Positions 9,708 through 18,009 of a stretch of DNA of 64,000 nt are shown here, one piece after another. The number at the start of each line of letters is the position of its first letter. Position 1 is the stretch's first letter. Made by a program: the position numbers and the translations under genes. The notes under the pieces are model-generated. The model saw nothing but the letters and a program-made list of their open reading frames with translations. It ran no database searches and was not told the origin of the DNA. This stretch comes from a virus, in IMG/VR virus record IMGVR_UViG_3300030037_000006, positions 1 through 64,000 of that record, one strand, 5' to 3'.

Positions 9708-10052
9708 TTAACTGTACATTTGACTAGTTATTAATTGTAGTTTCTGATCTTCAGTAAGCAAGTGTGAAATGTTAATAGCTTTTGCTACAACGAATCTTCC
9801 TTGCATTTCTTGTTCGTGTGTTGATATAAACTTAACACCGTTTTCGGTAATTGACAACTCCTTTACTAACAAAGATGGAATTTTCTTTCTAGAGTTATCT
9901 GCGTTGCGAGTCTTTACCGTTGTTACAGCGTACGATGCTAAGTTGCTAGATGATTTATATCCGCCTTTGATCATGCATATTACATCGTTTTCTTTGATAA
10001 CATTACCGATGTAGTCAAAGCTTTCTAATTCTGGTTTTATTTTCTTAGTCAT
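9708..10052 (-). CDS. hypothetical protein, C-terminal -MYS motif
   Basis: 114-aa ORF, AGGA RBS; ends SQMYS. Confidence 0.65.
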   Translation of the reverse strand: MTKKIKPELESFDYIGNVIKENDVICMIKGGYKSSSNLASYAVTTVKTRNADNSRKKIPSLLVKELSITENGVKFISTHEQEMQGRFVVAKAINISHLLTEDQKLQLITSQMYS

Positions 10053-10091
10053 TGTTTCTTATCCTGTTTATTAAATAAGAAACATAAAATT

Positions 10092-10113
10092 TGCTAGTCT
10101 TTCCTAGCAGTCA
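10092..10113 (-). repeat. TGAC-hairpin(GAAAGA) motif, copy outside the tRNA cluster
   Basis: TGACTGCTAGGAAAGACTAGCA, identical to the copy at 16131-16152. Confidence 0.85.
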
Positions 10114-14212: not shown

Positions 14213-14530
14213 CTATTTATCTAAGGAGACGTTTCTCAATTGTAAAATTTCGTCCAATTGGTACTGATCAGGTTCTGCTGAAATAGGAAGAATTAAGTCG
14301 TCTCCTTCCATGTATGATCCAGCATCCCAATACATATCAGTAAATATCTGGTCTCGTTCTAGTATGTTAAATATTTTAGCATAGGCGCCTCTAAATTTAT
14401 TCTGAGTGCCACTTTTAGATACAGTATCAGGGTTCTTAATATTTTTAATGCGAAAAGTTATACCTGTATTAGCGTCAGATTCAGTGAATTGAGCTTTAGT
14501 TGATTCATACAACTTTATAAATTTTGACAT
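14213..14530 (-). CDS. putative internal head protein (MSKFxKLYES leader family)
   Basis: Starts MSKFIKLYESTKAQFTE; late box at 14554-14561. Confidence 0.7.
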   Translation of the reverse strand: MSKFIKLYESTKAQFTESDANTGITFRIKNIKNPDTVSKSGTQNKFRGAYAKIFNILERDQIFTDMYWDAGSYMEGDDLILPISAEPDQYQLDEILQLRNVSLDK

Positions 14531-14578
14531 GCAATTCTCTTTTATATTTTATCTATTTATCTAGAATATAAACATGTT

Positions 14579-14625
14579 ATATGATAAGTACAACACAAAA
14601 GGCCTAAATAAATAGACCTTTTATT
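14579..14625 (-). repeat. terminator + early promoter cassette, copy 2
   Basis: Near-identical to 7932-7977. Confidence 0.85.
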
Positions 14626-14633
14626 AAGTGAGC

Positions 14634-14879
14634 CTACATATCTTTAAATAAAGTATAGGACTTATCTTCATGTAGATCATATAGTCTATTGAATTTATCT
14701 ACATTTCTAGAAACAAGTGATTTAACACGGAGAGTATCTGTATCTCTTATAGCAACATGGAGTAACTTGTCACCTGCCTTATATTCTTCGCCAAATAAAT
14801 CCGTTGTATTTAGCAATCGTGATATCACTTCAGCAGTTAAACTCTTTGATGTTTCTAGTTGTTCTTCTATAGTATGCAT
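14634..14879 (-). CDS. hypothetical protein
   Basis: 81-aa ORF at the distal end of the tRNA cluster. Confidence 0.55.
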   Translation of the reverse strand: MHTIEEQLETSKSLTAEVISRLLNTTDLFGEEYKAGDKLLHVAIRDTDTLRVKSLVSRNVDKFNRLYDLHEDKSYTLFKDM

Positions 14880-14913
14880 AATTAAACTCGTTTCTTATGT
14901 TGAATGTAAAAAA

Positions 14914-14988
14914 TGGAGCCTGCTGAGAATTCCGAGATCTCAACCCCCGACTTACAAAATCGGCGCTCTGCCTTTGAGCTAAGCAGGC
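14914..14988 (-). tRNA. tRNA-Thr(TGT), atypical T-arm
   Basis: Acceptor GCCTGCT/AGCAGGC + TCCA; anticodon arm CCGAT-TTTGTAA-GTCGG; T-loop CTCGGAA. Confidence 0.85.
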
Positions 14989-15001
14989 TCTTATAATAAA
15001 T

Positions 15002-15079
15002 TGGTCGGAGTGGGAGGATTTTAACCTCCGGTTTCCGCATCCCAAATGCGGCGGATTAAACAGACTATCCTACACTCCG
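15002..15079 (-). tRNA. tRNA-Pro(TGG)
   Basis: CGGAGTG/CACTCCG + ACCA; CCGCA-TTTGGGA-TGCGG; T-loop TTAAAAT. Confidence 0.9.
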
Positions 15080-15086
15080 ATAAAAC

Positions 15087-15163
15087 TGGAGAGTGATGTC
15101 AGATTCGAACTGACGCATGGAGGATTTGCAATCGACCGCCTTAACCAACTTGGCTAATCACTC
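15087..15163 (-). tRNA. tRNA-Cys(GCA)
   Basis: GAGTGAT/ATCACTC + TCCA; loop TTGCAAA; anticodon stem has two mismatches. Confidence 0.85.
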
Positions 15164-15172
15164 TTTTAAAAC

Positions 15173-15250
15173 TGGTAGCGGGAGAAGGATTCGAACCTCC
15201 GACCTCTTGGTTATGAGCCAAGTGAGCTGACCTAACTGCTCCATCCCGCA
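15173..15250 (-). tRNA. tRNA-Met(CAT), initiator-like
   Basis: TGCGGGA/TCCCGCT with 1:72 mismatch + ACCA; CTTGG-CTCATAA-CCAAG. Confidence 0.9.
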
Positions 15251-15259
15251 ATAAAAACT

Positions 15260-15336
15260 TGGTTGTGATACGAGGACTTGAACCTCGGACAATTCGGATA
15301 TGAACCGAGCGCTCTAACCAACTGAGCTATATCACA
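15260..15336 (-). tRNA. tRNA-CAT (elongator Met or Ile2)
   Basis: TGTGATA/TATCACA + ACCA; loop TTCATAT. Confidence 0.85.
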
Positions 15337-15344
15337 AACTAAAA

Positions 15345-15416
15345 CTACTCCACCTGGGTACGATCCAAGAATGGGTGGATCAAAACCACCTGTGTTACCA
15401 ATTACACCATAGAGTA
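15345..15416 (-). tRNA. tRNA-Gln(TTG), no encoded CCA
   Basis: TACTCTA/TGGAGTA; GGTGG-TTTTGAT-CCACC; T-loop ATCGTAC. Confidence 0.85.
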
Positions 15417-15420
15417 AAAG

Positions 15421-15500
15421 TGTGCCGAGTAGGACTCGAACCTACACGTCTAAGACCAGGGATTTACAGTCCCCTAAGCGACCAATTGCTCAATCAGCAC
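15421..15500 (-). tRNA. tRNA-Tyr(GTA)
   Basis: GTGCTGA/TCGGCAC; GGGGA-CTGTAAA-TCCCT; variable arm GTC-TTA-GAC. Confidence 0.88.
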
Positions 15501-15539
15501 AGTGTTTGGTTAATTGTTGCCATGGGAAACCAATCCATG

Positions 15540-15606
15540 TTGTAACCACGACTTGAACGTGGACTCACTGTTCGAACAGCAGCTCTTGCCAGTTGAGCTA
15601 TTACAA
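15540..15606 (-). ncRNA. tRNA-like RNA with shortened anticodon arm
   Basis: TTGTAA/TTACAA acceptor, intact D-arm (GCTC/GAGC) and T-arm (CCACG-TTCAAGT-CGTGG), but the anticodon arm is only 14 nt (GCTGTTCGAACAGT). Confidence 0.7.
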
Positions 15607-15617
15607 AATCTTAAAAA

Positions 15618-15770
15618 TGGTGCTGGCCACAGGATTCGAACCTGCACATTAGCCCGGTTTTCAAAAAGTACCTTTCTGCAGTTAATACTAATCTACTCAG
15701 CAATGACCGTATATGTTACGTTCCCTCGTTAGCTATCCTACATGTAGGGACTACATCAGTAACAACCAGC
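15618..15770 (-). ncRNA. 153-nt RNA with tRNA-like acceptor stem, T-arm and CCA
   Basis: 5' GCTGGTT pairs with GGCCAGC + ACCA; T-arm GCAGG-TTCGAAT-CCTGT; ~120 nt non-tRNA interior. Confidence 0.75.
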
Positions 15771-15844
15771 TTATTAAATGTTAGTCTTTCCTATCAGTCA
15801 ACTAATTTCACATCATTTAGAAGTCAGATCTATTAGATTTAAAG

Positions 15845-15916
15845 TACGAATGCTCGGATTTGAACCGAGAAGTCCTGGGTGGAAGCCAGGCATTTTACCG
15901 TTGAAATTACATTCGC
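15845..15916 (-). tRNA. tRNA-Gly(TCC)
   Basis: GCGAATG/CATTCGT; CCTGG-CTTCCAC-CCAGG. Confidence 0.88.
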
Positions 15917-15955
15917 ATGTGTTTGCTAGTCTTTCCTAACAGTCATTATACTAAG

Positions 15956-16028
15956 CATCTCCAACGAGACTCGAACTCGTGTTGCCGGGATGAAAACCCG
16001 GTGTTCTAACCAACTGAACTATAGAGAC
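15956..16028 (-). tRNA. tRNA-Glu(TTC)
   Basis: GTCTCTA/TGGAGAT; CCGGG-TTTTCAT-CCCGG. Confidence 0.9.
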
Positions 16029-16031
16029 ATG

Positions 16032-16125
16032 TGGCAGAAGAGGTCGGGATCGAACCGACATGCCCATTTAAACTGACAAACGAGTTAGCAACCCGTGACG
16101 ATACCAAATTTCGCTTTACTCTTCT
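16032..16125 (-). tRNA. tRNA-Ser(GCT)
   Basis: AGAAGAG/CTCTTCT + GCCA; ACGGG-TTGCTAA-CTCGT; long variable arm. Confidence 0.88.
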
Positions 16126-16244
16126 ACATTTGCTAGTCTTTCCTAGCAGTCATTGAATACTATCTGCGTTGAAAGGCGCCGCCTTCCATTGATAAGCTCA
16201 GTAGATAGTAACCACTTCGCGAATCAATTTGGGATAATACTAAG

Positions 16245-16317
16245 CGAGCCATATCGGATTTGAACCGATGTTGCAGGATAGACAATCCCGAGTCCTAACC
16301 AACTAGACGAATGGCCC
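16245..16317 (-). tRNA. tRNA-Asp(GTC)
   Basis: GGGCCAT/ATGGCTC; CGGGA-TTGTCTA-TCCTG. Confidence 0.88.
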
Positions 16318-16446
16318 TTATCCTACTTTTTCTAACTGATGGTAGGAGCATCATTGTCACCATGGTCGACTTTAGGTTCTAATCAGGACCAACGGAGTCT
16401 AACAGTTTTTAAACTGGAGGGAATCGAAGGCGACCCTTTGTTAAAG

Positions 16447-16535
16447 TGGAGAGACAGGGATTCGAACCCTGGGATGCATTGCTACACCGCTAGTTTTCAA
16501 GACTAGATCTTTAAGCCGGACTCAGACACCTCTCC
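16447..16535 (-). tRNA. tRNA-Ser(TGA)
   Basis: GGAGAGG/TCTCTCC; CTAGT-CTTGAAA-ACTAG; long variable arm. Confidence 0.9.
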
Positions 16536-16932
16536 AAAAATATGCTAGTCTTTCCTAACAGTCATTCGATCAAATATTATGCACACTTTAAGAGCGTATA
16601 AACTTTAGCAGGCCTACTATGCATGTTCATCCTACCGCTTCTAAGCATTACCGAAGTAATTTCATCTCTAACCTTCTAAGTCACATTTGATCAAAACTAG
16701 TCTTTCCTAGCTGTCATTAAATTATCTACTACGTGATTGAAATAAATCTACTAGCCGTACGGAAATCTTCATGGATAACTACTTGCCGGGATAATTTAAA
16801 TTTTATTACTATCACAATATACAGAACATTTGGCGGGTATGCGTAACATACTGTAAACTACTTTCGATCAAGTTATAACCACAAAGCAGGTGGCTTAGTC
16901 TACGATAGCTGGGATAGTAATAAAAGTCAATA

Positions 16933-17042
16933 GTTATAATAGAGTACTCACAGAAGGATTCGAACCTCCGAGGTAATTACTTCCTACCCGCAAGCGGCGG
17001 GCTACTTTAAACCACTCAGCCATGCTAGCAGTCTATTATAAC
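16933..17042 (-). ncRNA. degenerate type-II tRNA-like RNA inside an 11-bp outer stem
   Basis: D-loop GAGTGGTTTAA, T-arm GGAGG-TTCGAAT-CCTTC, variable arm, non-canonical anticodon loop CCGCTTG; flanks GTTATAATAGA/TCTATTATAAC. Confidence 0.65.
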
Positions 17043-17046
17043 AAAG

Positions 17047-17119
17047 CTCCGCGGGCAGGGTACGATCCTACAACCTACTCATTAACAGTGAGTCGAACTA
17101 CCAATTGTTCTACCGCGGA
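17047..17119 (-). tRNA. tRNA-Asn(GTT)
   Basis: TCCGCGG/CCGCGGA; ACTCA-CTGTTAA-TGAGT; T-loop ATCGTAC. Confidence 0.9.
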
Positions 17120-17122
17120 ATT

Positions 17123-17791
17123 TTAAAATTTCATTTTTCTTCCTTTAATCCAACCTTTACTTAAATAATCTTCTAGATCAGTTTTATGTATAGATTTACT
17201 AACCTTTTCTTCAAGGCTATGAATCCAACATTTACCGAATTGAGAATTACCAGATCCTTTTTGAGCCTTCGATGTTACTAAGCCAATCTTTCTCTTAGTT
17301 TCATCTGTATGCTGTTTACCTAACCAGAAAGTATTTCCCTTAAGACCTTCAGATATATTTAAGCACCATTGCTCGTATTTACCTGATTCTTTAAGAACGT
17401 TTACTAATTCTGCTCCACATAAAAGATTCTGTTTTCCTCTGCCATCTTGACCATTTAATACATTACCATTATCGTCATAATATAAATTACCACCTGCTTC
17501 CATAGACTCATGCCAATTGGCACCTTGTCCACCTACACAGCGATTATAAGTATCAGATCGACATACAAAATCAAAGTCTACTAACTTAGCTTCTAATAAA
17601 TCCATTTCATCTGAATCGTTACATTCGAATAAAATTTCTCTCTCAAAGAACTTAGTTCCGAATAATTTAATATCTTCACGAAGTTTAGTACCAGAACCTA
17701 GATAACCATCATCTAGCTTTTCTGTTTTATGCTGACCTATATAGATCTTGTTGTTAATTGTATTGGTTGTTTTATAAATGATGTAGTGCAT
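17123..17791 (-). CDS. free-standing GIY-YIG (Seg-like) homing endonuclease
   Basis: YIIYKTTNTINNKIYIGQH...YLGSG...FEREIL; NUMOD3-like GKQHTDETKRKI; lies beside tRNAs, as T4 segB does. Confidence 0.88.
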   Translation of the reverse strand: MHYIIYKTTNTINNKIYIGQHKTEKLDDGYLGSGTKLREDIKLFGTKFFEREILFECNDSDEMDLLEAKLVDFDFVCRSDTYNRCVGGQGANWHESMEAGGNLYYDDNGNVLNGQDGRGKQNLLCGAELVNVLKESGKYEQWCLNISEGLKGNTFWLGKQHTDETKRKIGLVTSKAQKGSGNSQFGKCWIHSLEEKVSKSIHKTDLEDYLSKGWIKGRKMKF

Positions 17792-17977: not shown

Positions 17978-18009
17978 AAAAGGGATAAAAACTAATGTTT
18001 TATCCCTTT
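17978..18009. terminator. bidirectional intrinsic terminator
   Basis: aaaagggataaaac-taat-gttttatcccttt. Confidence 0.75.

Follow-up and report, generated by a model that had tools for sequence, protein, structure and literature searches.

A short hairpin with an invariant UGAC prefix and GAAAGA loop punctuates a phage tRNA and small-RNA array and recurs in many kinds of phages

Results

A repeated hairpin in a tRNA and small-RNA array

We analyzed a 64,000-nucleotide (nt) stretch of viral DNA (positions 1 to 64,000 of IMG/VR record IMGVR_UViG_3300030037_000006, hereafter the window), whose minus strand carries an array of tRNAs and small RNAs (sRNAs) that is interspersed with copies of a 22-nt hairpin motif. 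The source phage is a marine, T4-like myovirus with a record of 90.7 kb and a CheckV completeness of approximately one third; its genes include those for a tail sheath, large terminase, portal, major head protein, GroEL, and DNA polymerase. Our data show that the motif is a real, uncatalogued RNA element spanning many kinds of phages, and that this window holds its richest arrangement among the records examined. The features of the locus are collected in Table 1.

The motif consists of UGAC followed by a 6-base-pair (bp) stem and a GAAAGA hexaloop, with a G-C closing pair. A pattern search of the window revealed six copies of the 22-mer, all on the minus strand and at exactly the positions given in an initial annotation made from the letters of the DNA. 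Five of them lie inside the array, and the sixth precedes an open reading frame (ORF). TGAC and the fixed block TAGGAAAGACTA, which that annotation had called invariant, are the same in all six copies. The pattern TGAC-NNNTAG-GAAAGA-CTA was matched six times in the window against 0.14 expected matches, a count of six was reached in none of 100 shuffles, and the same search uncovered no further copies in the remainder of the 90.7-kb record. In addition, a covariance model (R1) trained on the 127 motif instances described below scored the window copies at 35-45 bits and the next best window site at 14.5 bits. The stem changes had been described as mostly preserving pairing, which is true of two U-G wobbles (at 15924 and 16543) and of an A-U/G-U double change (at 16695), but an A-A mismatch at 15779 had been passed over.

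As had also been proposed, four copies lie shortly ahead of the 5' end of a tRNA or tRNA-like RNA (tRNA-Ser at 16535, tRNA-Ser at 16125, tRNA-Gly at 15916, and the tRNA-like RNA at 15770), with a measured spacing of 5-8 nt. The hairpin that follows the sixth copy ends 1 nt ahead of the ATG of ORF 9708-10052.

Table 1. Motif copies and other features of the array region, with coordinates in the window
Feature	Coordinates	Strand	Details
Motif copy 1	16695-16716	-	TGAC-AGCTAG-GAAAGA-CTAGTT; 35.4 bits; directly after domain D2, 2 nt before domain D3
Motif copy 2	16543-16564	-	TGAC-TGTTAG-GAAAGA-CTAGCA; 40 bits; tRNA-Ser(tga) 7 nt downstream
Motif copy 3	16131-16152	-	TGAC-TGCTAG-GAAAGA-CTAGCA; 42.6 bits; tRNA-Ser(gct) 5 nt downstream
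Motif copy 4	15924-15945	-	39.3 bits; only element of the 38-nt spacer that runs from tRNA-Glu (9 nt upstream) to tRNA-Gly (7 nt downstream)
Motif copy 5	15779-15800	-	TGAC-TGATAG-GAAAGA-CTAACA; 40.7 bits; A-A mismatch; 153-nt tRNA-like RNA 8 nt downstream
Motif copy 6	10092-10113	-	outside the array; 45 bits; 8 nt before a 9-bp hairpin (10054-10083)
Domain D1	16801-16925	-	125 nt; 13-bp closing stem; fold z -3.2
Domain D2	16717-16799	-	83 nt; 10-bp closing stem, 9 pairs in the minimum-energy fold; z -1.3, not significant
Domain D3	16568-16692	-	125 nt between two motif copies; 8-bp stem, 10 bp in the minimum-energy fold
Domain D5	16158-16210	-	53 nt bounded by an 8-bp complement
tRNA-like RNA	15618-15770	-	153 nt; 7-bp acceptor stem, T arm GCAGGTTCGAATCCTGT, 3' ACCA; ~120-nt non-tRNA interior
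tRNA array	14917-17119	-	13 ARAGORN tRNAs, an anticodon-less call (15537-15608), and an Rfam-only tRNA (14917-14988)
SegB-like GIY-YIG homing endonuclease gene	17123-17791	-	directly upstream of the tRNA array
Terminator-like hairpin	17979-18009	-	ahead of the segB-like gene; transcription unit likely bounded here on its upstream side
Terminator-like hairpin	14595-14624	-	after the array; transcription unit likely bounded here on its downstream side

The stem covaries across unrelated phages

When IMG/VR was scanned for the 16 bases that are fixed in the motif, at least 120 stretches were returned, and the stricter 22-mer returned 65. We aligned 127 motif instances with unrelated flanks (alignment A1), of which 125 distinct instances entered the covariation test. 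The free stem positions covary, as exemplified by the IMG/VR instances with TGATAG/CTATCA, TACTAG/CTAGTA, and TTCTAG/CTAGAA, and 93% of the stem cells are paired. Stem cells with a double change numbered 74 versus 23 in shuffles, the observed value being reached in 0 of 500 shuffles, and pairing was lost when the partner strand of the same alignment was slid. The covariance check across phages that the initial annotation had suggested came out positive, with the stems of the motif in other phages covarying as well. Moreover, the stems contain 24 G-U pairs versus 6 A-C mismatches, an excess that fits folding of the motif strand as RNA.

When the TAG/CTA requirement was dropped, more copies emerged, with the inner pairs AAG/CUU, AUG/CAU, UCG/CGA, and CCG/CGG, and with UGAC, the closing G-C, and GAAAGA all retained; no other loop was enriched behind the UGAC prefix. 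Apart from a U-rich stretch immediately 3' of the motif, the 30 nt on either side are unconserved among the 127 instances, so the 22-mer itself is the unit.

The motif stands before folded units

Of the 96 instances that had enough flank, 88 are intergenic, and the motif typically lies within a gap of several hundred bases. The flanking ORFs are mostly co-oriented with the motif (70 of 79 upstream and 59 of 79 downstream). Canonical same-strand tRNA 5' ends occur 0-12 nt downstream in 19 of 150 instances, compared with 3 tRNA 3' ends upstream and no opposite-strand tRNAs. A search by acceptor stem and T arm revealed that tRNA and tRNA-like units mostly begin 3-8 nt downstream, the clean matches being 59-190 nt long. 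In approximately a quarter of the cases, a tRNA or tRNA-like RNA begins 3-9 nt downstream. By a strict definition, a tRNA or tRNA-like RNA follows the motif in 28 of 134 instances (21%), an ORF starts within 60 nt downstream in 30% of the same 134, and a T-run comes after the motif in 36 of them (27%), including 18 of the 40 that precede an ORF.

Across the 127 instances, a closing stem of at least 8 bp starts no more than 10 nt downstream in 65%, versus 44% at displaced anchors (p=2e-4), whereas a closing stem ending just upstream of the motif is not enriched (p=0.07). The general rule is that the motif comes before a folded unit; the arrangement emphasized in the initial annotation, in which copies follow a stem-closed domain, is local to this window. 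The tie to tRNA transcripts drawn in the same annotation stands in part, in that the motif lies on the 5' side of tRNAs (19 versus 3 versus 0), but elsewhere it is mostly single-copy and is also found before ORFs and terminators.

Many of the downstream tRNA-like RNAs keep the acceptor stem, the start of the D arm, and the T arm, and their interiors are long and fast-changing. Closely related phages, namely L022, L161, and L172 (and L144 and L159) as well as G033, G034, and L189 (Acinetobacter phage Abp95), retain the hairpin together with the T arm and the acceptor or closing stem of the downstream unit, but the interiors of that unit, 40-130 nt long, are wholly different. This combination looks like a natural "tRNA scaffold" with exchangeable RNA cargo. 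In addition, the 153-nt tRNA-like RNA of the window shares the interior block GGATAGCTAAC-N4-GAACGT, as well as further matches, with a tRNA-like RNA at L161:2810-2985. The block common to 15618-15770 and L161, an unrelated IMG/VR contig, is absent elsewhere in IMG/VR, and the hairpin precedes both RNAs, which indicates that the non-tRNA bodies form families and are not random filler.

Other structured RNAs also share phage RNA islands with the motif, namely a permuted tmRNA match (51 bits, L047:1518-1779) and a ROOL RNA (116 bits, L186:1-455). In two streptococcal prophage-like contigs (L008 and L056), the motif lies downstream of a small ORF, and its UGA falls in the frame of that ORF, six codons beyond the stop. 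UGAC can be sequestered there by a mini-hairpin (GGTCA/TGACT), and at a distance of 4 nt the motif is followed by a canonical intrinsic terminator.

The motif is widespread in phages and rare in cells

The motif is carried by more than 120 unrelated IMG/VR contigs. A single strict copy was found in each of 40 other IMG/VR records, 20 of which are at least 90% complete by CheckV, and a search with R1 revealed a weaker second copy nearby in three of them. Since the other records are mostly single-copy, six copies in one record are unusual. Several of the 15 near-complete carriers do not contain any canonical tRNA.

Among the GenBank phages (2.3 Gb), 154-173 records match. The cultured carriers infect Acinetobacter, Cellulophaga, Vibrio, Streptococcus, and Bacillus: the motif lies within a 1-kb unannotated gap in Acinetobacter Obolenskvirus phages and inside the tRNA cluster of AM24-like phages, and it also occurs in Cellulophaga phages phi19:3 and phi13:2, the N4-like Vibrio phages VBP32 and VBP47, Streptococcus suis prophages, and the phi29-like Bacillus phages Juan and QCM11. 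No T4-type coliphage was found among the 154 and 173 motif-bearing phage records, and the tRNA region of the T4-type coliphage RB32 gave no match at E values up to 1. In phage Juan (L251:640-1320), a 930-nt gene-free early region with sigma-A-type promoters holds one canonical copy as well as the tandem variants TTGAC-ATTAGG-GAAAGA-CCTAAA and then TTGAC-A-CAGAGG-AAAG-CCTCTG, and so provides a second example of an array, this time in a cultured phage.

A looser form of the motif, TGACTGNTAGGAAAGACTANCA, is present in 14 contigs among 185,579 bacterial and archaeal species, mostly beside tRNAs and in one case in a ROOL RNA island. These chromosomal matches have a phage-like context (in Pedobacter, Akkermansia, Clostridia, Pseudoalteromonas, Kurthia, Lutibacter, Chryseobacterium, Sphingobacterium, and others), and an rRNA operon adjoins none of the 14. 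The five host genomes checked hold 1-2 copies each, and on that count we rejected the notion of a host signal co-opted by phages. The PLSDB plasmids (7.3 Gb) contain no real match.

Searches for a family, a partner, and other functions

Searches of Rfam 15 with the window at the gathering threshold and with positions 14500-17500 at E values up to 10 returned only tRNAs and noise. Likewise, a comparison of 34 other carrier loci with Rfam returned tRNAs, one ROOL, one permuted tmRNA, and one DUF805b, and none of these matches falls at the motif. The view of the initial annotation that the motif belongs to no named family therefore agrees with the outcome in both the window and the carrier loci. 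A literature search on the motif sequence and the topic retrieved nothing relevant.

The largest clusters of neighbor genes encode terminase, methylase, homing endonuclease, primase-helicase, and DNA polymerase, but each occurs at no more than 9 of the 127 loci, so the motif has no recurrent neighbor gene there.

We also considered several further functions. A sigma-70-type promoter, either with TGAC as its -35 box or lying just upstream, was rejected, as there is no positional excess of TAnnnT/TATAAT-like sequences upstream and the bases after the motif are T-rich and do not form the TAnnnT of a -10 hexamer; moreover, promoters are not expected to covary as these stems do. Sigma-A promoters do lie near the motif variants in Bacillus phage Juan, but that pattern is not general. 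Pairing of the GAAAGA loop with the U-tract that follows, as in a pseudoknot, fails on geometry, the linker being only 1 nt long. Loop-loop pairing with the anticodons of tRNA-Glu or tRNA-Lys seems to fit neither the distribution nor the anatomy of the motif, and a CsrA-type GGA site, a SECIS-like UGA plus hairpin, and a CRISPR-repeat mimic do not seem to fit them either.

Domains and remaining features of the array

The four long-range stems of 8-13 bp that had been claimed to close domains of the array are present in the sequence and in minimum-energy folds. Only 16801-16925 and 16158-16243 fold significantly better than shuffles. In the minimum-energy fold of the latter (z -2.3), the 3' arm of D5 pairs with an upstream partner instead, and the interior of D3 does not differ significantly from shuffles (z -0.3).

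The segB-like ORF and its adjoining tRNA resemble the segB/tRNA-Arg region of T4-type phages. A search of IMG/VR with the 279-aa neighbor gene revealed no relatives of this phage. Upstream of D1, a bare TGAC (16926-16929, minus strand) abuts the 13-bp stem, as if the 125-nt domain had replaced the small hairpin; this is a single case that could arise by chance (1 in 256). A weak tRNA-Ser(gct) call (16944-17029, minus strand; 35 bits) has a 5' end that begins with TGCTAGCA, the motif-stem palindrome, after AGAC. The call at 15537-15608 is a weak, ARAGORN-only tRNA with a two-base "anticodon" and no match in Rfam. Finally, the 128-nt spacer between tRNA-Ser(tga) and tRNA-Asp (16318-16445, minus strand) lacks the motif and does not fold significantly (z 0.06); a GGTGAC in it stands ahead of a short hairpin whose loop differs.

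Discussion

A possible leader hairpin at the start of RNA units

Judging from what we observed of the motif (its anatomy, its selection as RNA, the strand and position at which it occurs, its specificity to phages, and its copy number), we tentatively propose that it serves as a cis-acting "unit-start" leader hairpin or processing tag in polycistronic pre-tRNA/sRNA transcripts, where it would be read by a putative partner. The initial annotation had suggested a processing or protein-binding signal, and given that the motif is structured, covarying, strand-specific, co-oriented with transcription, and located 5' of tRNAs, such a signal remains our best guess.

According to this proposal, the block comprising segB, the tRNAs, and the sRNAs is probably a single transcript, and the terminator-like hairpins that flank it count in favor of a transcript-level function. 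Each hairpin of the array precedes, by 2-8 nt, the 5' strand of the next closing helix, be it a tRNA acceptor stem, the tRNA-like RNA, or a stem-closed domain. Wherever the next unit is a tRNA or is tRNA-like, a cut by RNase P would be expected 3-9 nt after the hairpin (5-8 nt for four array copies). The hairpin would thereby become the 3'-terminal structure of a released leader or spacer RNA and insulate neighboring units from each other. The predicted spacer products are D2 plus hairpin, D3 plus hairpin, D5 plus hairpin, and a hairpin-only spacer of ~38 nt between tRNA-Glu and tRNA-Gly. The invariance of UGAC, the closing G-C, and the loop implies a sequence-specific reader. Since hosts and plasmids avoid the motif and no common phage protein emerged from the BLAST-level clustering of the carrier genomes, that reader may be a conserved host component exploited only by phages or else a fast-diverging phage protein that escaped the clustering. 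Conserved acceptor and T arms around free-running interiors also fit the role of processing handles.

Several points weigh against this proposal. Nearly half (49%) of the 134 instances precede neither a recognizable tRNA or tRNA-like RNA nor an ORF start, and most tRNAs in the array of the window do not have a motif copy of their own. As reported above, hosts themselves do not use the motif, which would be surprising if the usual host processing enzymes were its readers. A hairpin 3 nt from the RNase P site should, in addition, crowd the leader-binding cleft of the RNase P protein. A comparison of 15 near-complete carriers and this record yielded no shared phage protein beyond a DnaB-like helicase, present in 10 of the 16 genomes, in a BLAST-level clustering of ORFs of at least 50 aa that small divergent peptides could escape.

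Alternative explanations

The motif might act on the polymerase instead, as a boxB- or put-like antitermination element or a cotranscriptional folding element, the nascent hairpin binding RNA polymerase or a Nus-type factor so that transcription is carried through the structured unit or the folding of that unit is chaperoned. We consider this unlikely. The purine-rich GAAAGA loop recalls the lambda boxB loops GAAAA and GAAGA, the host phyla observed share conserved RNA polymerase and Nus factors, and the motif lies directly before stable helices, including tRNAs, closing stems, and the intrinsic terminator of the streptococcal prophage-like contigs. D3 even contains an exact lambda-type boxA octamer, CGCTCTTA (16589-16596, minus strand), 24 nt upstream of the copy at 16543-16564, but CGCTCTTA stands beside one copy only, and chance alone would give the window approximately two octamers of this kind. 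Matches to the boxA 9-mer (CGCUCUUA-like) are also at chance level (35 versus 26 expected), and the 30 nt upstream of the 127 instances contain no boxA or other conserved flank. Neither the neighbor genes nor the BLAST-level clustering of the 16 carrier genomes revealed a shared candidate for an N-like factor. Processive antitermination would, moreover, need neither a spacing of 3-9 nt nor a new copy for each unit, and the untranslated operons of the hosts do without the motif. Accordingly, with neither a conserved boxA nor, in these comparisons, a shared N-like candidate, and with carriers that span T4-like, N4-like, and phi29-like phages, the boxB-like element put forward in the initial annotation finds little backing. 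A function in trans seems equally improbable to us: the released hairpin spacer or leader RNA would be a decoy or mimic for a conserved host factor, with the neighboring tRNAs as its processing handles. Absence from host housekeeping loci and plasmids is expected if only the phage benefits, no phage partner was found, the tRNA-Glu/tRNA-Gly spacer consists of the hairpin and nothing else, and the downstream tRNA-like RNAs retain only their acceptor and T arms. The octamer GGAAAGAC would be identical to 23S rRNA 2056-2063 and close in sequence to RNase P RNA CR-I, AGGAAAGUCC; we treat these resemblances as leads and not as evidence. However, no target was identified, such rRNA and RNase P resemblances are short and possibly due to chance, most phages have just one copy, which is little for a sponge, and many copies lie in mRNA leaders with no evident precise release.

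Other explanations look to the upstream unit, to the DNA, or to catalysis. As a 3'-end element of the upstream unit, the motif would be a terminator, an exonuclease block, or an insulator of translation or folding, its sequence being kept by descent and horizontal spread. The enrichment of U right after the stem and the T-runs counted above agree with this, as do the UGA, UAG, and often second UAG that provide stops in three frames when the sequence is read through. The motif also stays with its upstream flank in 7 of 8 one-sided pairs of related contigs, and copy 10092, alone among those of the window, passes a loose terminator scan. Yet an AU-rich 6-bp stem with 3 G-C pairs is weak for an intrinsic terminator, 73% of the instances have no T-run, the distance to the downstream feature is constrained whereas that to the upstream one is not, and a generic block would not fix UGAC, the closing pair, and six loop bases across phyla; we therefore hold this explanation to be decidedly unlikely. 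The 22-mer might also be a junction at the DNA level, a recombination linker for swapping RNA-gene modules like the PeSL cassettes of T4-type phages. Mosaic breaks do occur at the 3' edge of the motif, with L008 and L056 diverging at 0 nt from it and L132:4747-4830 representing an 82-nt unit inserted there relative to the otherwise collinear L134, and homing endonuclease genes adjoin several arrays, including that of the window. Against this, the G-U-tolerant covariation of the stem and its strict co-orientation with transcription indicate RNA-level selection, a recombination linker requires identity and not compensatory change, and the informative contig pairs are few, all of which makes such a junction quite improbable. 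The least credible explanation is that the motif is part of a small self-cleaving ribozyme that frees neighboring tRNA ends, and we give it very little weight. UGAC and GAAA-like strings occur in the cores of hairpin and hammerhead ribozymes, and the theta ribozymes of gut phages, which are similar to those of hepatitis delta virus (HDV), adjoin tRNA ends as the motif does. Nevertheless, conservation extends over no more than 22 nt and does not include flanks, a pseudoknot partner, or a third helix; one copy has a 38-nt spacer to itself; and no hammerhead, HDV-like/theta, twister, pistol, or hatchet model matches 14500-17500 at E values up to 10.

Broader significance

Phage noncoding RNA islands, which include tRNA arrays, tRNA-like RNAs, and ROOL/GOLLD-type RNAs, are abundant and almost unexplained. 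The near-unchanged sharing of the motif by unrelated phages and its avoidance by cells and plasmids point to a common step in making or using such RNAs, and that step probably involves a very conserved host component. A bolder version of this idea, possible in our judgment and still doubtful, is that the hairpin is a universal phage "address tag" that engages invariant bacterial core machinery (RNA polymerase/Nus, RNase P, or the ribosome) and is exploited by phages only. The motif is near letter-perfect in phages of Proteobacteria, Bacteroidota, Firmicutes, and Verrucomicrobia, and as an address tag it would either direct the production of tRNA-scaffolded small RNAs or be a released decoy. 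If so, it would represent a new class of RNA signal, shared across phages and lacking any counterpart in cells.

The window is a good handle for study, as its six copies cover four contexts (tRNAs, a tRNA-like RNA, stem-closed domains, and an ORF). The identity of the partner could provide a general marker for phage RNA genes and a rule for annotating their ends, and possibly a portable processing or stabilizing tag for synthetic RNA arrays.

Comparison with known systems

The motif shares features with several known elements. Like the RNase III sites of T7, it is a recurrent intercistronic hairpin that punctuates a polycistronic phage transcript, and cutting at those sites leaves a protective upstream hairpin. 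The T7 sites are double-stranded over ~20 bp or more and belong to T7-like phages, whereas the 6-bp stem of the motif is too short for RNase III and is accompanied by sequence-specific single-stranded parts. An invariant 5' tetranucleotide followed by an imperfect hairpin is also typical of REP elements and the ends of IS200/IS605, whose single strands are what HUH enzymes read. Both are DNA elements that occur in many copies on bacterial chromosomes and have cognate transposases; in contrast, the motif is mostly single-copy and phage-only, is not associated with a Y1 transposase, tolerates G-U pairs, and has an invariant loop.

Small conserved RNAs next to tRNAs are also known from diverse uncultured phages in the form of the theta ribozymes. 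They are reportedly minimal HDV-like ribozymes with nested double pseudoknots of ~45-60 nt at the 3' ends of phage tRNAs. The motif differs in being a 22-nt hairpin at tRNA 5' ends with no match to the HDV or hammerhead models of Rfam. The array as a whole resembles the T4 cluster with species 1 and 2 (rnaC and rnaD), in which a tRNA array adjoins a segB-type endonuclease gene and is interspersed with stable-looking non-tRNA or tRNA-like RNAs that are presumably released by tRNA-processing enzymes, a likeness that for our array is drawn from its sequence. The punctuating hairpin and the stem-closed domains, however, are not described for T4, and RB32 does not have the hairpin.

The motif also resembles lambda boxB, another short hairpin of nascent phage RNA with a purine-rich G-A loop and a stem that varies with pairing kept, placed before structured or terminating RNA. 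The two nonetheless differ in construction, since every copy of the motif has a GAAAGA hexaloop on a 6-bp stem and boxB has a GNRA-like pentaloop on a 5-bp stem, and since the motif begins with an invariant 5' UGAC where lambda has boxA 8-9 nt upstream of the hairpin. They also differ in range, the motif being found in T4-like, N4-like, phi29-like, and many uncultured phages of several host phyla, 3-9 nt before tRNAs.

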